Positions 3,443 to 64,000 of a DNA stretch of 64,000 nt are shown piece by piece. A program made the position numbers and the translations under genes. The stretch is from Candidatus Omnitrophota bacterium. Lineage in GTDB: Bacteria > Omnitrophota > Gorgyraeia > Gygaellales > Profunditerraquicolaceae. Under the pieces are notes generated by a model that saw only the letters and a list, made by a program, of their open reading frames with translations, did no database searches and was not told where the DNA came from. The stretch's first letter is position 1. Each line of letters opens with the position of its first letter. The DNA lies in assembly GCA_049517335.1 (NCBI GenBank), contig JBEKSD010000006.1, forward strand, positions 1-64,000, in the 5' to 3' direction.

Positions 3443-3574
3443 TAGAGACAAAGGAAGATATCCCTTGGGGTATGTCCCCTGTTTAAGATTTTGGTTAGAT
3501 TTTAGATCTGGTTTCGTCTATTAAGATATAAGGAGATGGTGCCTATTGGTAAATTATTTTGGTTCGGGATTTAG

Positions 3575-3603
3575 TTGACATTAAATGGTTGGTAAGATAT
3601 AAT
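3575..3603 (+). promoter_or_regulatory. Consensus sigma70 promoter upstream of recA
   Basis: TTGACA (3575-3580), 17 nt spacer, TATAAT (3598-3603); SD GGAGG at 3627-3631. Confidence 0.9.
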
Positions 3604-3637
3604 AATTTTCTCTAAACCTAAAAAACGGAGGCTTAAG

Positions 3638-4666
3638 ATGGCAATTGAAAAGAAAAAGGAAGAAATGCATAATATTTCCGATAGGCACAAGGCGCTGGAA
3701 CTCGCCCTTGCTCAGATAGAAAAACAGTTTGGTAAAGGCTCAATTATGAAATTGGGCGGGGATGTTAAGGTCAATGTTGAGACAATCTCTACCGGCGCCT
3801 TGACTTTGGATGTGGCTTTGGGTGTCGGGGGTTTACCTCGTGGAAGGGTAATTGAAATATTCGGTCCGGAGGCTTCAGGTAAGACTACGTTGACTTTAAC
3901 CGCGATAAGAGAAAATCAAAAAAAAGGCGGCGTAGCTGCTTTTATAGACGCTGAACACGCTTTTGATTCTACTTACGCAAAGCTTATCGGGGTAAATCTC
4001 GATGAATTGTTGATTTCTCAGCCGGATACCGGAGAACAGGCGCTGGAAATAGCTGAAACTCTTGTGCGCTCCAATGCCATAGATTTAGTTGTTATTGACT
4101 CGGTCGCTGCCCTTACGCCACGCGCTGAGATTGAAGGCGAGATGGGTGATTCGCATATCGGTTTACAGGCGCGCCTGATGTCTCAGGCATTACGCAAGCT
4201 GACCGGCTCAATCAGCAAGTCCCGTACCTGCGTGATTTTTATTAACCAGCTGCGTGAAAAAATCGGAGTTATGTTTGGTTCACCCGAAACTACTCCCGGC
4301 GGCAGGGCGCTTAAATTTTACTCTTCAGTCAGGCTTGACGTGCGCAGGATTGCTTCGCTCAAAGAGGCTGATGCGGTTATCGGGGGAAGAGTAAGGGTGC
4401 GCGTGGTTAAAAATAAAGTTGCCTCTCCGTTCAAAGAAGGCGAATTTGATATCTTGCATAATGAAGGTATTTCTCGGTTTGGCGCCATTATTGACGCAGG
4501 GCTAAATTCGGAAGTCATCGCCAAATTCGGCACTTGGTTGTCTTTTGGTAATGAGAAGCTCGGCCAGGGAAGGGAAGCGGCAATAAAAACCTTAAGAGAG
4601 AAGCCGAAGCTGGCGGAAGAGATAGAAAAAGAAGTGAGGAAAAAGTTATCTCAAGGTGAGAAGTAA
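3638..4666 (+). CDS. recA: Recombinase A
   Basis: [31 protein letters not shown]. Confidence 0.99.
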
Positions 4667-5135: not shown

Positions 5136-7723
5136 GGGTTAAATTCTTGGATTTTTTTAAAGCCAGGAAACACAAAATAACGGACAGCGATTCGCTGGTA
5201 CCTAAAGACGACCCTACGGTGCTGTTTACCCCTGCGGGGATGAATCAATTTAAAAAAGAGTTTTTAGGGTTTGATTCCGGATTTCCCCGCGCCGCTACCT
5301 GCCAGAGATGCCTGCGCACAGATGACCTGATTAAAGTCGGTAAAACTTCCGGCCACCATACTTTTTTTGAAATGCTGGGGAATTTTTCCTTCGGGGATTA
5401 TTTTAAGAAAGAGGCGATTAACTGGGCCTGGGAATTTTTGACGGAAGTGCTGAAAATCGATAAGGCTAAGTTTTGGGTTTCAGTCTATAAGGACGATGAG
5501 GAAACTTATAAGCTTTGGAACGAAACAATAAAAATTCCCTCTAAAAGGATTGTCAAGCTTGGAGACAAGGAAAACTTCTGGCCTTCTGAGGCAAAAGAAA
5601 AAGGCCCAAACGGTCCCTGCGGTCCGTGTTCGGAGATATTTTTTGATCAGGGCAGCGGTACCGGCTGTAAATCTAAAGATTGCTCTCTTTCATGCGGATG
5701 TGGAAGGTTTATGGAAGTTTGGAATCTAGTTTTTACCCAATTTAACCGTAAAGAAGGCGGGAAGCTTGAGTCGCTGCCGAATAAGAACATTGATACTGGT
5801 ATGGGCTTGGAAAGGCTCGCCGCGGTAATGCAGGGCGTAAGCAGTAATTTTGAAACCGATTTATTTACCCCAATTATATCGGAGATTAATAATGGGAGTA
5901 AGAATGAAGCTGGGGATAATAAACCCCTAATTTACGCGATTGCCGACCATATACGCGCAGTGACGTTTTCTATCTATGACGGAGTTTTGCCTTCAAATGA
6001 GGGCAGGGGCTATATTGTTCGTAAATTAGTAAGAAAAAGCGTTTTACATTTAAGGTCATTGGGCATTAGTCAGCCGTATTTGTTTAAGCTTGTTGTCCCA
6101 GTTGCGCTGGTTATGAAGCCGTTTTACCCGGATTTAATGGTGCGCAAAGAGAATATTGCCGAAATAATTTTGTCTGAAGAAAGGTCATTCATAAATACCC
6201 TTAATTCAAGCGATACGTTATTAAAAGAAAAATTCCAGGGTTTTTTGAAGGTTCAGAACCCTGAGGAAGTCGGCAGGATAACCTTTCAGTTCCATGATAC
6301 CTACGGTATGCCTTTAGAGCTTACACAAGGCTGGCTTGAGATGCGGGGGATAAAGATTTCCATGCAGGCTTTTAATGATGAGCTCAACCGGCAAAAAGAG
6401 CGTTCAAAACTGCAAAGTTCCATGAAGGGTGACGTCTTCAGCGCTCAACTTGATTATGGGGTAAAAGAGACGAGATTTTTGGGTTATAAGGAGTCACAGG
6501 CCAAGGCGAAGGTTATTAAGATTATGAAAGGCAATGAACCGGCCAAAAAAATATCCAAAGGCGAAGAAGGCCTGATAATCCTTGATAAAACTACTTTTTA
6601 CGCGGAAAGAGGAGGGCAGGTCGGGGATAAGGGACAAATCGTAAAGGGAAAAAATATTTTTGAAGTCTCGGATACGCGCAGGTCCGGCAACGTAACTTTA
6701 CATATAGGTAAAGTTAAGACGGGTAGTTTCAAGACCGGCGATGAGGCAACGGCGAAAATTGATATTGCCCTGCGCGTGGCTATTGAACGCAATCATACGG
6801 CAACGCACCTCTTGCAGGCGGCATTAAGAAAAGTTTTGGGGCCGCACGTCCAGCAACAGGGCTCATTAGTGGCGCAAGGGCGCCTGCGTTTTGATTTCTC
6901 GCATTTTAAAGATATAACTAATGAAGAGATCAACCACATTGAAGAATTCGTAAACAAGGCAATTTTGGAGAATTTGCCCGTGGAGAAGAAAGAGAAAAGC
7001 CTGCAGGAAGCAAAGAAATCCGGGGCTTTGGCATTCTTCGGCGAAAAATATGAAGGTAAAGTGCGTGTTGTTTCCATAATGAATACTTCCATGGAACTTT
7101 GCGGAGGCACGCATCTTGACTCAACCGGCTCAATAGGGTTATTTAAGATTATTCATGAAGGTTCTGTTTCTAGTGGGGTACGTAGGATTGAAGCGGTGAC
7201 TGGAGCTTTTGCTTATAAGGCGGTCAAAGAAGAGGAAGGGATGATTTCTGAATTGGGCGCCATATTGAATACTCCTAAAGATAAAATCGTGCAGGAAGTA
7301 GAAAAAAGAAGCGTTCGGCTTAAAGAGCTGGAGAAAGAACTAAATATGCGTAGGATGGAACTGTTGAAAGATAGCTGCGATGAGCTGGTCGCTAATGCGG
7401 AAATTGTTAACGGCACAAAAGTAATTTTGAAAGTGTTTGAAGGTCTTGATATGAATTTATTAAGGAAGAACGTAGACTTACTTAAGGAAAAAGCTATCAG
7501 TTCAGTGGTAGGTCTTGGTTCCAGTATCGAAGGAAGGGCGCTCTTGGTTGTAGGAGTAACTCCTGACCTTTGCGCAAAAGGCTTGGATGCCACAAAGCTT
7601 ATCCGTTCAATATCAGGGTTAATCGGCGGAAGCGGAGGAGGCAGGAGCGACTTTGCTCAGGCCGGAGGCAATAACCCGGGCAATTTAAAACAAGCATTAG
7701 AGGAGTTAAAAAGTAAATTATGA
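5117..7723 (+). CDS. alaS: Alanine--tRNA ligase
   Basis: HHTFFEMLGNFSFGDYFK, DTGMGLER, editing motifs HTATH and ELCGGTH, C-terminal GGSGGG. Confidence 0.99.
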   Translation: MLASELRVKFLDFFKARKHKITDSDSLVPKDDPTVLFTPAGMNQFKKEFLGFDSGFPRAATCQRCLRTDDLIKVGKTSGHHTFFEMLGNFSFGDYFKKEAINWAWEFLTEVLKIDKAKFWVSVYKDDEETYKLWNETIKIPSKRIVKLGDKENFWPSEAKEKGPNGPCGPCSEIFFDQGSGTGCKSKDCSLSCGCGRFMEVWNLVFTQFNRKEGGKLESLPNKNIDTGMGLERLAAVMQGVSSNFETDLFTPIISEINNGSKNEAGDNKPLIYAIADHIRAVTFSIYDGVLPSNEGRGYIVRKLVRKSVLHLRSLGISQPYLFKLVVPVALVMKPFYPDLMVRKENIAEIILSEERSFINTLNSSDTLLKEKFQGFLKVQNPEEVGRITFQFHDTYGMPLELTQGWLEMRGIKISMQAFNDELNRQKERSKLQSSMKGDVFSAQLDYGVKETRFLGYKESQAKAKVIKIMKGNEPAKKISKGEEGLIILDKTTFYAERGGQVGDKGQIVKGKNIFEVSDTRRSGNVTLHIGKVKTGSFKTGDEATAKIDIALRVAIERNHTATHLLQAALRKVLGPHVQQQGSLVAQGRLRFDFSHFKDITNEEINHIEEFVNKAILENLPVEKKEKSLQEAKKSGALAFFGEKYEGKVRVVSIMNTSMELCGGTHLDSTGSIGLFKIIHEGSVSSGVRRIEAVTGAFAYKAVKEEEGMISELGAILNTPKDKIVQEVEKRSVRLKELEKELNMRRMELLKDSCDELVANAEIVNGTKVILKVFEGLDMNLLRKNVDLLKEKAISSVVGLGSSIEGRALLVVGVTPDLCAKGLDATKLIRSISGLIGGSGGGRSDFAQAGGNNPGNLKQALEELKSKL

Positions 7724-12478: not shown

Positions 12479-13971
12479 TGTTTACTCCAGGTTTTGAAGA
12501 ATTTAAAAAGTTAGCCAAAAAAGGCAATGTGATACCGGTTTACAAGGAGATTAACGTTGACCTTGATACGCCGGTTTCCACCTTCTTAAAACTTAAAAAA
12601 AGCGATTACGCGTTCCTTCTTGAGTCTGTGGAAGGAGGAGAGAAGATTGCCCGTTATTCATTTTTGGGAAGCAACCCCTCTATGATATTCAGCAGCAAGG
12701 CAAGCAATATTCAGGTTATTTACCCTAAAAAAAATATCAAAGATTGTTTTATTACCCGCTCTACTCCTTTGGATGAATTAAAAAAAATAATGCAGGATTT
12801 TAAGAGCGTATCGGTCAAAGGCCTGCCGCGTTTTTACGGCGGTTTAGTCGGCTATATCGGTTATGATATGGTCAGATTCTTTGAAGAGATACCGGATAAA
12901 AACCCCGATGATTTAAGGCTCGCAGATTCGGTTTTTCTCTTAACTGATACAATTCTGATTTTTGACCACGTTAATCACCTTATAAAAATAGTAAGCAATG
13001 TTTTCCTTCCTCAAGGCAAGAATTCTTCAGCTCCGTCATTAAAAAAATACTATAACCGGGCCCTGAAAAAAATTGAAGAAATAGAAAGTGATTTTAATAA
13101 GCCGCAGGTCTCTCCTTATCTTGAAAACAGCGGGGTTACGCGTAAGCACGTAGTTGAATCAAATTTTACCCGAGAAGAGTTTATGAATATTGTTTCCCGG
13201 GCAAAAGAATATATCAGGAAGGGGGATATTATTCAGGTTGTCTTATCGCAGCGTTTTCAGATAAAGTCCGGCAAGAAGGCTTTTGATATTTTTCGGTCAT
13301 TGCGCAGCCTGAACCCTTCACCATATATGTATTTTCTTAAATTAAAGGATATTGAAATCGTGGGTTCTTCTCCTGAAATGCTGGTAAGATGCGAAGACGG
13401 CTTAATCCAGACCCGGCCGATAGCCGGAACCCGGCCGCGAGGCAAGAATGAAACAGAGGATGCCCGGCTTTCCGAAGAACTCTTAAAAGACAAGAAAGAA
13501 CGCGCCGAACACCTTATGCTGGTGGATTTGGGCAGGAATGATTTAGGCAGGGTTTCCCAAACCGGGAAGGTAGAGGTCAGCGAATTTATGGCTGTTGAGA
13601 AATATTCCCATGTTATGCATCTGGTCAGCGAGGTTAGGGGAAGGCTTGACAATAAGAAGTATGACGTATATGATGTTTTAAAATCCGCATTCCCCGCCGG
13701 CACCCTTAGCGGCAGCCCCAAAATCCGGGCAATGGAAATAATAGATGAGTTGGAGAACGTCAAACGCGGCCCTTATGGGGGAGCCATAGGGTATTTTAGT
13801 TTTTCTCACAATATGGATACTTGTATTACGATAAGGACAATTGTGATTAAGGGCAATACGGCATACGTACAGGCCGGGGCAGGCATCGTAGCGGATTCTC
13901 TGCCGGAAAGAGAATATCAGGAAACAGTGAATAAAGCAAAGGCGTTAATTGAAGCAATAACTGGGAGGTAA
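12478..13971 (+). CDS. trpE: Anthranilate synthase component I
   Basis: LLESVEGG, NPSPYM, PIAGT, AEHLMLVDLGRND, PAGTLSGSPK. Confidence 0.93.
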   Translation: MFTPGFEEFKKLAKKGNVIPVYKEINVDLDTPVSTFLKLKKSDYAFLLESVEGGEKIARYSFLGSNPSMIFSSKASNIQVIYPKKNIKDCFITRSTPLDELKKIMQDFKSVSVKGLPRFYGGLVGYIGYDMVRFFEEIPDKNPDDLRLADSVFLLTDTILIFDHVNHLIKIVSNVFLPQGKNSSAPSLKKYYNRALKKIEEIESDFNKPQVSPYLENSGVTRKHVVESNFTREEFMNIVSRAKEYIRKGDIIQVVLSQRFQIKSGKKAFDIFRSLRSLNPSPYMYFLKLKDIEIVGSSPEMLVRCEDGLIQTRPIAGTRPRGKNETEDARLSEELLKDKKERAEHLMLVDLGRNDLGRVSQTGKVEVSEFMAVEKYSHVMHLVSEVRGRLDNKKYDVYDVLKSAFPAGTLSGSPKIRAMEIIDELENVKRGPYGGAIGYFSFSHNMDTCITIRTIVIKGNTAYVQAGAGIVADSLPEREYQETVNKAKALIEAITGR

Positions 13972-13975
13972 AACA

Positions 13976-14224
13976 ATGGCAGTGCATATTCGTTTAAGAA
14001 GGATAGGAAAAAACCCGAGAGGTAAGCCGCATTTCAGGGTAACTGTTTTTGATGAAAGGAAAGGCCGGGACAGTAGGTTTTTGGAGGAGCTTGGATATTA
14101 TAACCCGGTGACAGGCAAAGCTGAAATAAAAAAAGAGAAGCTTCAGGCTTGGGTTAAAAACGGCGCCCAGCTTTCCGCGACGGTAAAAAGTTTATTAAAA
14201 AAACAAGAAAAGGGGGGTAAGTAA
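13976..14224 (+). CDS. rpsP: 30S ribosomal protein S16
   Basis: IRLRRIG, RD..LEELGYYNP, GAQLS. Confidence 0.95.
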   Translation: MAVHIRLRRIGKNPRGKPHFRVTVFDERKGRDSRFLEELGYYNPVTGKAEIKKEKLQAWVKNGAQLSATVKSLLKKQEKGGK

Positions 14225-14226
14225 AA

Positions 14227-14523
14227 ATGCCTCAGGCGCAAGCAGGTAATCCTTTGATGAATCTTTTTCCTTTAGTTATCATTTTTGTGATCTTTTACTT
14301 TATGTTGATACGCCCGCAGAAGACAAGAGAAAAAGAGCATCAAAAAATGTTAAATAACCTGAATAAAAACGATGATGTAGTGACAACCGGTGGCGTCCAC
14401 GGAACTATCGTTAATGTAAAAGATAAAACGATAATTCTAAGAATCGATGAGAACGTCAAGATTGAGATCGAAAAAAGCTCTATTGCTTATGTGAAAAAAC
14501 CGCAAGGTGCGGTCGCTTCTTAA
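14227..14523 (+). CDS. yajC: Preprotein translocase subunit YajC
   Basis: TM helix + FYFMLIRPQ, DDVVTTGGVHG; upstream of secDF. Confidence 0.95.
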   Translation: MPQAQAGNPLMNLFPLVIIFVIFYFMLIRPQKTREKEHQKMLNNLNKNDDVVTTGGVHGTIVNVKDKTIILRIDENVKIEIEKSSIAYVKKPQGAVAS

Positions 14524-14539
14524 GGAGAAATCAAATAAA

Positions 14540-59321: not shown

Positions 59322-59534
59322 ATGGCAAAGACTAAGGAAATTTTAACAGCCAAAGAAGTTGCGGAATACCTTAATATTCATCCTCTCACCGTCCACAGGT
59401 ACGCCCGTGAAGGCAAGATTCCCGCCTTCAAGATAGGTACGGACTGGAGGTTCCACACGAAATATATTGAGAGATGGATTAAGGAAAAATCTAACCATCA
59501 GGTTCGCAACAAGGCACAGAAAAATTTACTTTAA
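59322..59534 (+). CDS. Excisionase-like (HTH_17 / MerR-type) small DNA-binding protein
   Basis: LTAKEVAEYLNIHPLTVHRYAREGKIPAFKIGTDWRF. Confidence 0.9.
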   Translation: MAKTKEILTAKEVAEYLNIHPLTVHRYAREGKIPAFKIGTDWRFHTKYIERWIKEKSNHQVRNKAQKNLL

Positions 59535-59554: not shown

Positions 59555-60475
59555 ATGAGAACCTTCGCATATATTACTACCCCTATAAATACCGAGCAGC
59601 TTAAGGAGCAGTGGCAGGCGTTAAAATACCTTCCGGATTATATTCTAAGTCGTCTTCGTAAATTACTCCCCAAATATAAAATTATAAAGTTAGGAAAATT
59701 TGAATCAGTGCAGGCAGAAACTATCAAAGGATACAAAATAGTCTGTCCTATTTTGGATGAATATAAACAGGATAATCTGGTCCTTGAAAGAATAATCTCT
59801 GCCTGTTGTATCGCCGAAAAGCTCGGCGTAAAATTAATCGGCGTTGGCGGTTATGCTGCTTTGGTTGCAGATAAGAATTACAATAAAATAATTAAGTCCG
59901 TAAAAATCCCGGTTACCTGTGGCAACGCATTGAGCGCATGGTGCCTTTTTGAAAAAGTTTACCGGCTGGCAAAGGCAAAGAATATCCCCCTTAAAGGCTC
60001 AACAATACTCTTTCTCGGAGCAGACACCCAAACCGGTTCTTTAGCCGCAAGAAAATTATCAGAATACACTGCTAAAATCATTATTGCGGGAACTGATAAA
60101 AATCTACTGGCAAAGCTTAAAGAAGTAATCCTGCAGGAAAATCATATTGAAGTAATCATTGAATCTAATATCGAAGCTGCATTGAATGAAGTATCCATAG
60201 TGGTTAATGCCGAAGAAGCTTATGAGCCTCTGCCTAAATTAAAAGAAAATACGATTTATTCCGGCGTAGAAGCCCTGCGTATCAGGGAATACGGGGCAGG
60301 CGTTAGTAGATTTATTTCTCCGTCGTTAGCCGAGGCAGCCCTGCTTGTTTTAGACGATAATGCCGTTAGTTATTCATTAGGCAAAAATAGTAATCTGGAG
60401 ATACTGGAAGAGATCGCGAATACCGCGGTGCGGCAGGGGTTTGAGGTCTGGGTGCCGGAAGCGCCGGTATTATGA
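59555..60475 (+). CDS. Divergent acyl-ACP-reductase-like / COG5322-type Rossmann protein
   Basis: N-terminal FAYITTP, IGVGGYAALV, PVTCGNALSA, degenerate GAxxxxG, LAEAALL..SYSLG..AVRQGF resemble the family by eye. Confidence 0.6.
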   Translation: MRTFAYITTPINTEQLKEQWQALKYLPDYILSRLRKLLPKYKIIKLGKFESVQAETIKGYKIVCPILDEYKQDNLVLERIISACCIAEKLGVKLIGVGGYAALVADKNYNKIIKSVKIPVTCGNALSAWCLFEKVYRLAKAKNIPLKGSTILFLGADTQTGSLAARKLSEYTAKIIIAGTDKNLLAKLKEVILQENHIEVIIESNIEAALNEVSIVVNAEEAYEPLPKLKENTIYSGVEALRIREYGAGVSRFISPSLAEAALLVLDDNAVSYSLGKNSNLEILEEIANTAVRQGFEVWVPEAPVL

Positions 60476-60480
60476 CAAAA

Positions 60481-61218
60481 ATGCTATTAAAGGGCAGGAA
60501 CATAATGATAAAGCGGGGCAAGCAGAGGGATCGGCCGCGCTATCGCGCTTGAGCTGGCAAAAGAAGGCGCGAATATAAGTTTTAGTTTTGCCAGCAGTGT
60601 AAAAGAAGCGCAAGCCCTTGAAAAAGAAATTAGCACGCTTGGCGTAAAAGCAAAAGCATTTCAGGTGGACATTAGGGACTTTGAGGCTGTTAAAACATGG
60701 GTTGAAGAAACAAAAAAAATCTTAGGCTCGCTGGATACGGTAATAAATAACGCCGGAATCATCAAGGACAAAGCACTTGCCCTTATGGATGTTTCGGAAT
60801 GGCGCGATGTACTCAATACTAATCTTGACGGGGTATTTAATTTATCCCGCTGCGCCATAATAACCTTTTTAAAACAAAAAAGCGGCAACATCGTTAATGT
60901 AACTTCTGTCAGCGGCGTGGTCGGCTTGCCTCGGCAAACAAATTATTTCGCGTCAAAAACCGGCATCATCGGTTTCACAATAGCGCTGGCAAAAGAAGTA
61001 GCCCTTTAGGGGGTGAGGGTTAATGCGGTAGCCCCCGGTTTTATTGAAACCGACATGCTCAAAGATTTAAAAGAAGAGCACAAGGCGCAGATATTAAAGC
61101 ATATCCCTTTGGCAAGGCAGAAGAAGTGGCAAAGACGGTAAAGTTTTTAATTTCCGATGCATCCGGGTATATCACGGGACAAACCATTATTATTGCCGGC
61201 GGAATGAGCATAGCTTAA
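60481..61218 (+). pseudogene. fabG: 3-oxoacyl-ACP reductase (FabG-like SDR) pseudogene with three lesions
   Basis: Motifs [30 protein letters not shown] are spread over several frames: frameshift ~60511, TAG 61007-61009, frameshift ~61117. Confidence 0.88.
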
Positions 61219-61220
61219 AT

Positions 61221-62462
61221 ATGGATAAAAGGATCGTAATTACCGGATTAGGCGTAGTGGCACCGAGTGGGATAGGGAAAGAGGATTTTTGGAAGGCGAA
61301 CATTGAGGGCGTATCCGCAGTTGATAAAATAAGAAGTTTTGATACTGCAGACTATGCCACTAAAATAGCAGCAGAGATAAAAAATTTTGACCCGCAAAAA
61401 TATCTCTCTCAAAAGCTTATAGACAATATTGACAGGTCTACACAGTTTGCTTTAGTAGCAGCAAAATTAGCTATAGAAGATGCTGGGATTAATCTTGAAA
61501 AAGATAATAAGAATTCAATAGGCGTATGCATTGGCGCTGGTTTAGGTGGGATGTTTTTTTATGAAAAACAAATCATTGCAGTGTATGAAAATTCAGTTAA
61601 AAAGATAGAACCTGCCTGTGTGCCTCGCATTACCCCTAATGCTCCTTCCTCGCAAATCTCTATTCAAAATGGCTTATTAGGTCCAAATATCACGGTTTCT
61701 ACTGCCTGCTCATCCGGAGGCCATGCTTTAGGTCTAGCTATGGACATGATAAAACTGGAAAGGGCAGATGTTATCTTGGCTGGTGGCACGGAAGCATCGA
61801 TAATTCCGCTTACTTTTGGGGCATTTAGCGTTTTACGAGTAATGTCTAGAAGGAACGATACTCCTAAAGAGGCAAGCCGACCCTTTGATAAAGATAGGGA
61901 TGGTTTTGTGATGGGTGAAGGATCGGCAATCTTAATCTTAGAAGAATTATCGCACGCAAAGAATCGCAAAGCAAATATCTATGCTGAGCTTATAGGGTAT
62001 GGGTCTACATCGGGTGCTTATCATATGGCAGCACCGGAACCCAAAGGTAAGGATGCAATCAGGGCAATGAAGATAGCACTAAATACCGCAGAAATAAATC
62101 CCCAAGATGTTGATTATATAAATGCCCATGGTACTTCTACAAAGGCAAACGATAAGGTTGAGACAGAAGCAATTAAAGCAGTATTTAAGGAGCACGCCTA
62201 TAAGCTAGCAGTAAGTTCAACTAAATCCATGATTGGTCATCCTATCGGTGCTGCAGGCGCAGTCGAAGCGGTGGTATCAGTTTTAGCCATCCAGCACAAT
62301 ATCGCTCCACCAACAATCAATTACAAAACACCCGATCCGGATTGTGATTTAAACTATGTACCCAACCAAGCGCAGAAACGTAAAATCGATACTGTACTTT
62401 CAAACTCTTTTGGATTCGGTAGTAATAATGCCGTATTAGTATTTAGGCGTTTTACTGAATAG
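61221..62462 (+). CDS. fabF: Beta-ketoacyl-ACP synthase II
   Basis: RIVITGLG, TACSSG (Cys), NAHGTST (His), KSMIGH (His), NSFGFG. Confidence 0.93.
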   Translation: MDKRIVITGLGVVAPSGIGKEDFWKANIEGVSAVDKIRSFDTADYATKIAAEIKNFDPQKYLSQKLIDNIDRSTQFALVAAKLAIEDAGINLEKDNKNSIGVCIGAGLGGMFFYEKQIIAVYENSVKKIEPACVPRITPNAPSSQISIQNGLLGPNITVSTACSSGGHALGLAMDMIKLERADVILAGGTEASIIPLTFGAFSVLRVMSRRNDTPKEASRPFDKDRDGFVMGEGSAILILEELSHAKNRKANIYAELIGYGSTSGAYHMAAPEPKGKDAIRAMKIALNTAEINPQDVDYINAHGTSTKANDKVETEAIKAVFKEHAYKLAVSSTKSMIGHPIGAAGAVEAVVSVLAIQHNIAPPTINYKTPDPDCDLNYVPNQAQKRKIDTVLSNSFGFGSNNAVLVFRRFTE

Positions 62463-62470
62463 GAGGAATT

Positions 62471-62722
62471 ATGCTATCTATAAATAGAGAAACCATACAA
62501 AAAGAAGTAAAAGAAATTATAAGCCAAAGGCTACATGTGTCAGTTGATAAGATAAGAGAAGATTCAAAGTTACGGGAAGATTTGGGAATGGACTCTTTTG
62601 GCGCCATCGATGTCGCCTTTGCTCTGGAAGATAAATACAAAAAAGAAATACCGAATGAGGATTTAGAGAATATTGAAACTGTAGATAATATTATAAATCT
62701 AATTATAAAGAATTTGAGTTAA
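62471..62722 (+). CDS. Acyl carrier protein
   Basis: 83 aa, acidic, DLGMDSF phosphopantetheine Ser, LEDKY, ETV; SD AGGAGG. Confidence 0.93.
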   Translation: MLSINRETIQKEVKEIISQRLHVSVDKIREDSKLREDLGMDSFGAIDVAFALEDKYKKEIPNEDLENIETVDNIINLIIKNLS

Positions 62723-62774: not shown

Positions 62775-63977
62775 ATGAAATCAATTGTTAAAGAAGATAA
62801 AATTATAGAACGGCCGCCAATTAATATGGCAAAAGATTATTCTAAAGAATTTATATCCCAGCGCTTATCTTGGCTTAGTAATAAAACCAATACAAAGTTA
62901 CACCACATTAGCCAATATTCCCAACCAAGTGAAGATATGAGAGGAAACATAGAGAATCCAATAGGTGTTTGTCAAATCCCCCTTGGTATTGCCGGTCCCT
63001 TAAAGATAAATGGAGAATATGCCAAGGGGGCCTTTTACATTCCGATGGCAACAGTAGAGGGAACTCTTTTAAAATCCTATGATTCGGGTATGGCTATTTT
63101 GACAAGAGCGGGAGGAGTTAATGTGAAGATTTTTAAAGATGAAATACACATTGCTCCTATATTTATACTAGATGGCTTAAATGATATAACTAAGTTTATA
63201 GAATGGATAAGAAATAATTTTAATAATATAAAAAAAGAAACAGAGAAAACAACCAAGCATGGAAAGTTATTGAGAATAGACCCTATTGTTGCGTCTAAAA
63301 GAGTTATCTTAAAGTTTAGTTATTTTACTGAAGACGCCATGGGGGCGAACATGGTGGCTATCGCCACAGAATCGGCTTGCAAATATATTTTTTCTGAGAC
63401 CGGTAAAAAATTCTTTATTAAATCAAATCTTTGTTCTGATAAAAAAGCCTCTATGCATAATTTTGTTGAAGGATATGGTAAGAGTGTATTTGCTGATATA
63501 TCTATCCCAGAACATGTTGTCAAATTTTTCGGCACTACGCCTAAAGAAATGTTTGATTATTATCATGCTTATGTTATTGGAAATTCTCATGCTGGCATGA
63601 TAGGAATGAATGGTCATGTAGCAAATGGGATAGGTGCATTATTCTTAGCTTGCGGTCAGGATGTTGCAGAGATAATAGGTGCCTCTATGACTATTTGCCA
63701 TGGAGAAGTAAGAGAAAATGGAGATGCATATATTAGTGTTTATATACCAAGTCTATTGGTTGGCACTGTAGGGGGAGGTGCTTCTTTAGTGACTCAACGT
63801 GAATGTCTAGAAGTGCTTGGTTGCTACGGTTCTGGTAAAGCCAAGAAATTTGCCGAAATTGCTGCAGCCGTTGCTTTGGCAGGAGAATTTTCTATCTGCG
63901 CTTCAATTGCTAATCATACCTTTGTTAAGGCTTTTATGAAATATGGTAGAAAATCAGGAGAAAAAGGAAAAGAATGA
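62775..63977 (+). CDS. Class I HMG-CoA reductase-fold protein with divergent substrate site
   Basis: ENPIG..IPLGIAGP, PMATVEG, DAMGANM, SDKK, GQD, GTVGGG, AGEFS. Confidence 0.88.
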   Translation: MKSIVKEDKIIERPPINMAKDYSKEFISQRLSWLSNKTNTKLHHISQYSQPSEDMRGNIENPIGVCQIPLGIAGPLKINGEYAKGAFYIPMATVEGTLLKSYDSGMAILTRAGGVNVKIFKDEIHIAPIFILDGLNDITKFIEWIRNNFNNIKKETEKTTKHGKLLRIDPIVASKRVILKFSYFTEDAMGANMVAIATESACKYIFSETGKKFFIKSNLCSDKKASMHNFVEGYGKSVFADISIPEHVVKFFGTTPKEMFDYYHAYVIGNSHAGMIGMNGHVANGIGALFLACGQDVAEIIGASMTICHGEVRENGDAYISVYIPSLLVGTVGGGASLVTQRECLEVLGCYGSGKAKKFAEIAAAVALAGEFSICASIANHTFVKAFMKYGRKSGEKGKE

Positions 63978-64000
63978 ATTTTTTTAAGATTTCCTGTTTG
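63974..64000 (+). CDS. Probable start of the next gene in the cluster (truncated by the window edge)
   Basis: ATGA overlap with the HMGR-like stop, SD-like AAGGA upstream, open to the window end (MNFFKISCL). Confidence 0.4.

Follow-up and report, generated by a model that had tools for sequence, protein, structure and literature searches.

Enzymes with the fold of HMG-CoA reductase (HMGR; HMG-CoA, 3-hydroxy-3-methylglutaryl-coenzyme A) were held to make or break down mevalonate until the description of FcrA, an HMGR-related, NADPH-dependent fatty acyl-CoA reductase, by which reduction of fatty acyl-CoA is assigned to many of the 'HMG-CoA reductases' of bacteria (Grossi et al. 2025, ISME J 19:wraf035, PMC11948995). 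A further protein of this fold is encoded at 62775-63977 of a 64,000-nucleotide stretch of DNA (the window; contig JBEKSD010000006.1, assembly GCA_049517335.1) from a Candidatus Omnitrophota bacterium of the Profunditerraquicolaceae. The window is part of contig C6 of a 1.45 Mb genome (92 % complete, 31 contigs). Taken as a whole, the protein is best explained as an NADPH-dependent lipid carbonyl reductase, coupled to a kinase and most likely converting an aldehyde to an alcohol. This function, predicted from sequence and gene order, is advanced tentatively, its probability falling somewhat short of an even chance.

Following the main text of Grossi et al., FcrA corresponds to a large clade of bacteria and haloarchaea whose members are annotated as class I HMGR, carries out four-electron reduction of acyl-CoA and leaves HMG-CoA unreduced; free C16:1 aldehyde was not reduced by Pb-FcrA, and FcrA-bearing bacteria are described as devoid of the mevalonate pathway. 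Four catalytic residues, His included, are reported as conserved in all FcrA homologues, which are further marked by Glu at S684 (human HMGR numbering), a generally small residue in place of the conserved Lys (K735) and Trp at L862; some members possess an N-terminal lipid-binding domain or an acyl carrier protein (ACP). The main text is silent on PilZ domains, response regulators, histidine kinases, Omnitrophota and Nitrospirota, while the supplements may show whether such sequences belong to its 'putative FcrA' clade. Repurposing of the HMGR fold for acyl reduction is hence an already published idea, whereas the kinase-linked clade described here is undescribed. Literature searches for PilZ joined to HMG-CoA reductase or hydroxymethylglutaryl, for HMG-CoA reductase-like proteins in bacteria, and for HMG-CoA reductase together with ACP and a thioester reductase domain retrieved nothing relevant.

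Fold, residues and clade of the reductase

The two genes at the centre of this analysis are:
62775..63977, + strand: HMGR/FcrA-fold reductase of the kinase-linked clade, His866-to-Phe variant, 400 aa, ATG start
63974..64000, + strand: start of a HisKA_7TM-GAF-histidine kinase gene, its ATG overlapping the reductase stop (ATGA, 63974-63977)

The open reading frame (ORF) of the reductase, delimited exactly by the initial annotation, encodes an intact, full-length class I HMGR-fold protein. In a Pfam search, PF00368 (HMG-CoA_red) covers residues 28-392 (380.7 bits, profile positions 3-368 of 368); just 27 residues stand ahead of the catalytic domain, and an N-terminal PilZ or receiver domain is not present. 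The nearest solved structure is the archaeal class I HMGR of Methanothermococcus thermolithotrophicus (6hr7; E 2.8e-93, residues 23-392, ~45 % identity), and human HMGR (1dq8/2q1l) aligns at an E value of about 4e-53 over residues 55-393, i.e., through the C-terminal segment that bears H866 in the human enzyme.

HMMER alignment to human HMGR (human number = chain index + 421) reproduced every residue call that had previously been made by eye. Retained are E559 (E95, in TVEG), D690/K691/K692 (D222/K223/K224), D767 (D296, in CGQD) and both NADPH motifs (DAMGANM and GTVGGG), to which N755 (N284) can be added. Replaced are R568 (S104, in YDSG), R590 (I126, in IHIAP), S684 (K216, in IKSN), K735 (A265, in HAYVIG) and H866 (F387, in VKAFM), the alignment restoring none of the Arg, Lys and His residues; the L862 position is occupied by F383, bulky but not Trp. 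According to the text of a review on HMGR (PMC7503714), R568 and H866 belong to the CoA pocket (together with S565, N567, K722, S865 and Y479), and S684, K735 and H866 to the HMG pocket (together with D690, K691, K692, D767, E559, N755 and L853), while H866 protonates the CoA thiolate upon collapse of the hemithioacetal; the roles assigned to these residues by the initial annotation are thereby borne out, except that R590 was not found in the review text. Judged by the aligned residues, the hydride-transfer machinery is retained, and the residues for HMG/CoA recognition as well as the thiolate-protonating His are lost. We take R590, as did the initial annotation, to participate in substrate recognition.

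The reductase cannot be a mevalonate-forming enzyme, since Dxr of the methylerythritol phosphate (MEP) route is encoded in the genome (above its cut-off), and neither a match to the HMG-CoA synthase N-domain (PF01154) nor a second reductase (PF00368 has a single match) is found in the 92 %-complete genome. Only one GHMP kinase is present, and the window shows no genes of the mevalonate pathway, as noted initially; what directly follows the reductase gene is the kinase gene. A genuine though divergent HMGR, as might be assumed from the strong PF00368 match and the identity to the archaeal class I enzyme, is a reading already close to refuted: besides this genomic setting, the residues that bind HMG and CoA have been exchanged along with the catalytic His, and the TIGR00533 score (351.7 bits) stays below the equivalog cut-off (441.8 bits). 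This cut-off is likewise missed by all 10 bacterial representatives of the related groups (325-377 bits). If the reading proposed here holds, it corrects a widespread misannotation as 'hydroxymethylglutaryl-CoA reductase' in organisms using the MEP route.

The residue pattern of the query is not due to chance but common to a clade, as seen in the aligned homologues. The 120 best database homologues, stemming from Omnitrophota, Elusimicrobiota, Nitrospirota (including Manganitrophus), Saganbacteria and others, carry the signature of the query and not that of FcrA: the R590 column holds Ile, Leu or Val in 114 and the S684 column Arg, Gln or Lys in 117 of them, the His866 column is composed of His (104), Phe (12), Asp (2) and Leu (2), and E559 is replaced by Gln in four. 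According to precomputed Pfam annotation, an N-terminal PilZ domain is present in 45/120 (PilZ being confirmed by further domain searches) and a receiver (REC) domain in 2/120; a receiver domain is also found in the proteins of loci L121 and L124, and two clade members carry a 4HBT_2 thioesterase.

A FastTree phylogeny of 131 sequences (74 genome loci, 32 further loci, 24 database hits and the query; 406 columns) contains three groups, each forming one side of a branch: a kinase-linked group including the query (54 rows, support 99), an FcrA-like group (53 rows, support 98) and an Acidobacteria-centred group (24 rows, support 100), whose genes directly follow a ketosynthase-chain length factor (KS-CLF) pair. 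In this unrooted tree the query is set apart from the FcrA-like group by branches of 98-99 support. Arg590 occurs in 0/54 kinase-linked vs 53/53 FcrA-like sequences; S684 is Arg, Gln or Lys in 50/54 of the former vs Glu in 48/53 of the latter, and L862 is Phe or Tyr in 53/54 vs Trp in 43/53 (Phe in the other 10). The hydrophobic residue replacing R590 is part of a clade motif xH[IV]xP (IHIAP in the query), its preceding His being present in 41/54. All three groups have K691, N755 and D767 without exception, and E559 is present in 52/54 kinase-linked members. As placed by this tree, the query appears to belong to a separate, uncharacterised clade distinct from FcrA.

H866 is conserved in 53/53 FcrA-like and 24/24 KS-CLF-linked sequences, yet only in 40/54 kinase-linked ones, its loss in the remaining 14 demanding at least four changes on the tree. 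Phe at this position is shared with P0002, P0003, P0005 and P0056 from the query's own subclade (61-72 % identical to the query, on contigs of just 1.1-2.2 kb), which retain E95, K223, N284, D296 and the NADPH motifs where covered (the P0056 fragment lacks the E95 region). Since Phe is common to sequences as divergent as these with catalytic residues retained, the Phe form is old and under selection rather than a fresh lesion. The kinase-linked clade would add a further branch to the HMGR fold, with a different substrate pocket, repeated loss of the His and ties to signalling (7TM kinase, PilZ and receiver fusions; 7TM, seven-transmembrane); if the proposed reading holds, it also offers a natural experiment on the separation of the two half-reactions of HMGR chemistry.

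These data bear directly on the possibility that the query is an FcrA-type fatty acyl-CoA reductase supplying fatty alcohols for wax esters or ether lipids. It shares the fold, the missing K735 salt bridge (Ala265 being a small residue as in FcrA), a bulky aromatic residue at L862 (Phe, not Trp) and a genome without matches to the mevalonate pathway. However, three signatures differ, i.e., the catalytic His (Phe), Glu at S684 (Lys216) and R590 (retained in 53/53 FcrA-like sequences), the query resides in a different clade of the tree, and a Lad-type N-terminal domain is absent. An FcrA-type function therefore seems very unlikely. The WS/DGAT profile PF03007 has zero matches in the genome, but is uninformative, since the control also matched in 0/14 genomes.

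The distribution of the reductase is patchy. At E <= 1e-30, it was found in 18/400 other genomes of the own phylum (three of them of an Arg-keeping type), in 0/59 genomes of the own family, in 12/401 of a Nitrospirota sample and in 5/301 of an Elusimicrobiota sample. The Arg-keeping type, encoded in Omnitrophota and Nitrospirota (L117, L118, L120, L158-L160; signature V[ST]R[AS]P/E[SA]N/DKK/AHR), retains Arg590 as well as His, is located in the FcrA-like part of the tree, has no kinase neighbour and scores below the TIGR00533 cut-off. On the first two of these grounds, L117, L118 and L120 were rejected as clade members lacking a kinase neighbour. Similarly, a group with the signature MQRAP/ESN was rejected as 'canonical HMGR', since it bears the Glu and Trp signatures of FcrA and stays below the TIGR00533 cut-off. 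The KS-CLF-linked clade (signature NRVSP/FSG/EKR, His kept, mostly Acidobacteriota; L019, L020, L023, L025, L026, L030, L032, L035, L040, L042, L067, L069, L089) looks like the reductive release enzyme of a type II polyketide synthase-like system.

The 7TM kinase as partner of the clade

In this genome, translational coupling links the reductase to a sensor histidine kinase of the 7TM-GAF type, the two genes overlapping by 4 nt. The kinase gene reaches the C6 contig end (64551) and resumes at C14:1-1611; both contig ends share 20 nt, and both pieces are colinear with the kinase of L015. The 192-aa open ORF at the end of C6 represents HisKA_7TM (57 bits), and the C14 piece GAF and HATPase_c, with H305 of this piece as phospho-acceptor His (invariant in 18 sequences). 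Further downstream on C14 are thioredoxin and housekeeping genes.

Pairing with such a kinase was analyzed in 28 loci with the clade signature (6 from a GTDB scan, 10 from the own phylum, 10 from the Nitrospirota and Elusimicrobiota samples and 2 metagenome contigs, L128 and L129, from a scan with a single protein). Outside this count are the Arg-keeping loci L117, L118, L120 and L157-L162, as well as the fragmentary L109-L112, which were examined separately as L219-L221. The next gene on the same strand encodes a signalling protein in 27/28 loci, with HisKA_7TM in 25, HATPase_c in 20 and GAF in 17 of the 27. Reductase and kinase genes overlap by 4 or 8 nt in 11/27 loci and are spaced by <=34 nt in 23/27. 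A FadL/TodX outer-membrane channel is encoded directly upstream in 5/28 loci and nearby in a sixth. The conserved partner of the clade is therefore a HisKA_7TM-GAF histidine kinase, and not a ketosynthase or an ACP. The lipid-gene context emphasized by the initial annotation stands for the window itself, where FabF and ACP are indeed adjacent, but is rare across the clade, ACP occurring in 1/28 intact loci.

From this pairing, one may ask whether the reductase serves the kinase mainly in regulation or ligand sensing, binding NADPH and/or an acyl ligand and modulating the 7TM-GAF kinase with little or no turnover. The clade-wide association with frequent stop/start codon overlap, the many members fused to PilZ (45/120) or receiver domains, the loss of His in 14/54 sequences (at least four changes) and the Gln at E559 in 4/120 would agree with such a role. 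On the other hand, K691, N755 and D767 are present in 54/54 and E559 in 52/54 members, and the NADPH motifs are kept even in His-less subclades, as would be expected if the protein is an active enzyme of hydride transfer. Moreover, PilZ or REC domains fused to an enzyme more usually indicate a regulated enzyme than a sensor. A mainly regulatory function is thus regarded as rather improbable. Complex prediction for the cytoplasmic part of the kinase (residues 100-536 of the C14 piece) and the reductase yielded a score of 0.00 in two runs, performed without controls.

In relatives of the window's cluster the kinase is followed by a GAF-HD-GYP protein. The respective gene follows the kinase in most family relatives, while in the own genome it is split over the end of contig C2 (148487-149056) and the start of C5 (2-532), away from the kinase. 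Ten PilZ-domain matches (L223-L230 and two more) were found in the 1.45 Mb genome, one of them with an in-frame TAG (C4:43478-43783); cyclic di-GMP (c-di-GMP) signalling seems to be heavily used by this small-genome organism.

Lipid cluster, carrier proteins and proposed reaction

Upstream of the reductase, the window contains the following genes:
59322..59534, + strand: excisionase/MerR-type helix-turn-helix (HTH) protein, 70 aa (PF12728 61.5 bits, TIGR01764 47.9 bits)
59555..60475, + strand: AAR-like NAD(P)-binding reductase, candidate acyl-ACP reductase, 306 aa (TIGR04058 E 8.8e-10, PigE N-terminal region E 3.3e-16)
60472..61218, + strand: FabG (3-oxoacyl-ACP reductase) pseudogene, interrupted by two frameshifts and an in-frame TAG (three-frame translation and DNA)
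61221..62462, + strand: beta-ketoacyl-ACP synthase II (FabF), dedicated, 413 aa (TIGR03150 575 bits, cut-off 493.75)
62471..62722, + strand: ACP, dedicated, 83 aa (PF00550 46 bits, below the acpP equivalog cut-offs)

FabF and ACP, the two lipid-gene neighbours named initially, are thus in place. The ACP gene ends 52 nt upstream of the reductase gene; the protein has a DS motif visible in the translation and represents one of 5 PP-binding matches in the genome. Since a housekeeping acpP-fabF pair is located on contig C12, FabF and ACP of the window represent an extra, dedicated pair. A third lipid gene set is found on C19:1500-14600 (L167), comprising an ACP (3488-3685, minus strand), two ketosynthases (5207-7689), a FabG-like protein (1527-2186) and a histidine kinase fragment (13793-14527). 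Within this bacterial family, the HTH gene is conserved as the opening gene of the cluster (72-86 % identical and syntenic in L181-L188), the order Lpd-LipB-BCCP-like-HTH-AAR-like being common to these relatives. The AAR-like protein has homologues in 37/60 other family genomes; its match to TIGR04058 (long-chain acyl-ACP reductase) is far under the cut-off of that model, and its nearest Atlas feature cluster, 'long-chain acyl-[ACP] reductase' (score 0.93, 203 shared features), serves as a lead only.

Compared with the intact FabG of L181 (248 aa), the FabG pseudogene reaches 76 % identity, but across two frames. It is damaged by a +1 frameshift around 60510, within an A run, by the TAG at 61007-61009 and, around 61108-61126, by a second shift. 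The first shift and the TAG are not errors of a single assembly, since Logan contigs from two other peat samples reproduce both: X2 (60405-60611) repeats the first shift region with no difference, and X3 (60890-61040) repeats the TAG, differing from the window at 60981 and 61000 only. At these two positions, the contigs of all three covering runs (including the possible source run) have G and T, respectively, and the window T and A; contigs of the possible source run break between 61003 and 61009, at the in-frame TAG. Mismatch and break may reflect strain heterogeneity or an error in the bin consensus.

The link between carrier proteins and the reductase clade recurs. In P0123 (49 % identical, clade signature, His kept), ACP (8-74), PilZ (153-251) and reductase are fused. 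Two loci of the same class combine the reductase gene with ACP: L220 comprises V-ATPase genes, ACP, a reductase pseudogene and the 7TM kinase, while L219 comprises a REC protein, a frameshift-split reductase, FabF, ACP, a 397-aa protein without Pfam match and the 7TM kinase. The window FabF is 65 % identical to that of L219. Outside the kinase-linked clade, P0126, P0131 and P0191 display AMP-binding, PP-binding and HMGR-like domains in succession, i.e., an adenylation-thiolation-reductase (A-T-R) layout with the HMGR fold as reductase, and P0125 is a KS/CLF-HMGR-like fusion. Such AMP-binding-PP-binding-HMGR-like and related fusions are listed for P0126-P0131, P0133, P0134, P0148, P0166, P0191 and ~90 among P0138-P0240. 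Many fusions of HMGR-like and EcKL/APH kinase domains, annotated as 'phosphotransferase', occur in Pseudomonas, Photorhabdus, Desulfobacterales and others, all of these domains being combined in P0191 (1498 aa); HMGR-like proteins are fused to DUF3419 in P0132 and P0135-P0137.

Within the own family, the window genome is the only one seen with an HMGR-like gene in the slot upstream of the kinase. Kinase matches (E <= 1e-60) are present in 38/60 family genomes, and 29 of these loci (L190-L218; 55-74 % identical to the window kinase) were inspected for the gene directly upstream. It encodes an FAD oxidoreductase in 11 loci, an S-adenosylmethionine (SAM) methyltransferase in 5, an aldehyde dehydrogenase in 2, and a FAR/TR-type NAD_binding_4 protein, an AAR-like protein, a PilZ-thioesterase, a nitroreductase, an HTH protein and FabF in one each; in 5 it was not visible. 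Since several of these alternatives act on an acyl thioester or aldehyde, the slot points to terminal carbonyl chemistry on the product of an ACP-dependent pathway, which is the strongest contextual argument. The closest cluster, L181, consists of HTH, AAR-like, FabG (intact), FabF, FabA-like, a second FabF, ACP, KS-like, FAD amine-oxidase-like and kinase genes, and L188 of HTH, AAR-like, FabA-like, PilZ+4HBT_2 thioesterase and kinase genes, followed at some distance by GAF-HD-GYP. Together with the FcrA precedent (main text of PMC11948995), the carrier fusions and the ACP genes of L219 and L220, these slot analogues uphold the view already expressed in the initial annotation that the protein is not an HMG-CoA reductase, but a repurposed HMGR-fold reductase tied to fatty-acyl chemistry.

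The initial annotation had gone further and proposed a complete acyl-ACP thioester reductase, which would release the acyl chain from the adjacent ACP as aldehyde or, by four-electron reduction, as alcohol, despite the missing His. The neighbouring ACP and FabF, the recurrence of ACP neighbours in L219 and L220, the ACP-HMGR-like and A-T-HMGR-like fusions and the FAR-type thioester reductase and thioesterase filling the same slot in sister genera all speak for such an enzyme. Furthermore, His mutants of HMGRs retain a few per cent of activity. Four-electron reduction of acyl-CoA is, in addition, carried out by FcrA (main text of PMC11948995). Loss of the His had been taken as part of the case for an ACP thioester reductase; this argument fails, since an ACP thioester needs the His equally, and the loss rather argues against thioester cleavage by the query. 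H866 protonates the leaving thiolate (review text of PMC7503714), and here it is replaced by Phe. The His is reported as conserved in all homologues of FcrA (main text of PMC11948995), and it is found in 53/53 FcrA-like, 24/24 KS-CLF-linked sequences and even in the ACP-fused homologue P0123. In addition, the AAR-like candidate acyl-ACP reductase is already encoded in the cluster, and the FabG of the cluster is a pseudogene. A complete thioester reductase is therefore considered unlikely, albeit second to the reading favoured below. The initial interpretation is partly supported: it is right in its direction (ACP, fatty-acyl link) but takes the missing His to be reconcilable with thioester cleavage, and it overlooks the FcrA precedent and the kinase partner.

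We instead favour a lipid carbonyl reductase acting on the aldehyde. The reductase is the final enzyme in a small lipid cluster that depends on ACP and is partly decayed (HTH, AAR-like, FabG pseudogene, FabF, ACP), and would reduce the carbonyl end of an acyl chain built on the neighbouring ACP. The aldehyde would be supplied by the AAR-like acyl-ACP reductase, whose coding sequence lies four genes upstream. Because Phe replaces the general acid releasing the thiol, the second half-reaction, from aldehyde to alcohol, is the most likely step. In HMGR chemistry, the His would be required only for the first half-reaction (collapse of the hemithioacetal and release of the thiol), while the second hydride transfer would reduce the aldehyde. 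The lipid product, or the enzyme itself, may be what the 7TM module of the adjacent kinase responds to. We know of no ligand of HisKA_7TM; if the proposed reading holds, this sensor domain would gain a testable candidate ligand class. As a close alternative, the enzyme may perform slow, His-independent thioester reduction. One may also speculate that FabF and a ketoreductase, in a cluster containing no dehydratase, provide a 3-hydroxyacyl chain, which would be converted to a 1,3-diol, as is the product of HMGR itself.

Several observations weigh against an aldehyde reductase as proposed. An aldehyde-only role is without precedent in the nearest characterised relative, as Pb-FcrA spared free C16:1 aldehyde (main text of PMC11948995). 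The basic residue at S684 (Lys; R/Q/K in the clade), opposite in charge to the Glu of FcrA, hints at a substrate with a polar or anionic group and not a plain alkyl chain. Adjacency of ACP is rare, the single intact locus among the 28 being L122 (phmmer with the window ACP), and the related genomes behind the pairing counts are not independent. The tree is unrooted and contains neither a characterised HMGR nor a class II outgroup, and its groups were defined by motif columns that are also within the alignment. With its FabG pseudogene and missing genes, the cluster looks degraded: the dehydratase, second FabF, KS-like gene and FAD oxidoreductase of L181 are not contained in it, and for the latter two the rest of the genome yielded no homologue beyond the two C19 ketosynthases and the housekeeping FabF of C12. 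Finally, the HMGR-like genes beside ACP in L219 (6392-7608, one frameshift) and L220 (8469-9507, several frame changes, a stop and E559Q) are broken, such that the system may be decaying in this lineage.

The window kinase itself is mosaic. Compared with 20 family orthologues, its cytoplasmic part is 56-76 % identical, the 7TM part only 23-34 %. The best matches of the 7TM part are in L220 (38 %, 129 bits) and L164 (41 %, 123 bits), followed by L016, L150, L163, L017, L129 and L015, all of them kinases that follow HMGR-like genes in other lineages, whereas the best family orthologue (L214) reaches 108 bits. GC content at third codon positions (GC3) is 0.25-0.32 for FabF, ACP, reductase and the 7TM-coding part, vs 0.39-0.49 for HTH, AAR-like, FabG and the cytoplasmic kinase part; correspondingly, identity to the L181 counterparts is low for FabF (36-40 %) and ACP (29 %) and high for FabG (76 %) and HTH (79 %). 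This pattern fits replacement of the segment from FabF through the 7TM-coding part as one cassette. Among the family loci L190-L218, mean identity of the kinases is 27 % for the 7TM part and 66 % for the cytoplasmic part. In pairs of the 20 family orthologues with the same upstream enzyme, 7TM identity is 6.5 points higher than in pairs with different enzymes (reached in 5/5000 label shuffles), while the cytoplasmic part is devoid of such an effect (-2.05; 4120/5000 label shuffles). This comparison, a lead and not a test since the relatives are not independent, suggests a match between the 7TM module and the enzyme encoded ahead of it.

Extending this, reductase and 7TM module might constitute a unit of 'enzyme plus matching sensor' that can be exchanged as a cassette and terminates a small lipid pathway dependent on ACP, with different genera of this Omnitrophota-like family making differently finished lipid head groups and each hypervariable 7TM region detecting its own product. 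We put this forward as a doubtful extension, more likely wrong than right by a wide measure. If it were true, genera would differ in the end of the lipid (alcohol, acid, methyl ester or desaturated chain), and lipid-derived signal or feedback systems with lineage-specific 'dialects' would emerge, in which the HMGR-like protein acts as the final signal-forming enzyme; in other phyla, the HMGR-like enzyme would be gated by c-di-GMP (PilZ) or phosphorylation (REC).

Comparison with known systems

With class I HMGR (human 1DQ8/1DQ9; 6HR7), the reductase shares the full-length PF00368 domain, the E/K/D catalytic residues, DKK of the cis-loop, DAMGxNM and GTVGGG, but differs from it in the exchanges H866F, R590I, S684K, K735A and R568S, the sub-cut-off TIGR00533 score and a context without mevalonate pathway. 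FcrA is closer in that, besides fold, NADPH motifs and E559/K691/D767, the absence of the K735 salt bridge, the bulky aromatic residue at L862 and the occurrence in bacteria without mevalonate pathway are common to both; fusions to ACP also occur in both (for FcrA, according to the main text of PMC11948995). In contrast to the query with Phe, Ile and Lys, FcrA keeps H866, R590 and Glu at S684, and the two reside in separate clades of the tree.

Thioester and aldehyde reductases with which fatty-acyl pathways end, namely the families of cyanobacterial AAR, FAR/TR ('male sterility' NAD_binding_4) and aldehyde dehydrogenase proteins, occupy the same slot upstream of the orthologous kinase in sister genera, and the chemistry proposed here, i.e., from acyl thioester via aldehyde to alcohol, is alike. 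Their folds, however, are unrelated, such that the reductase would be a functional analogue and not a homologue.

CqsA/CqsS and RpfF/RpfC-RpfG are gene pairs of signal synthase and membrane sensor kinase for lipid-derived signals. As in the present locus, an acyl-thioester enzyme is encoded beside a multi-pass membrane histidine kinase, while the enzyme family and the HisKA_7TM sensor domain differ.

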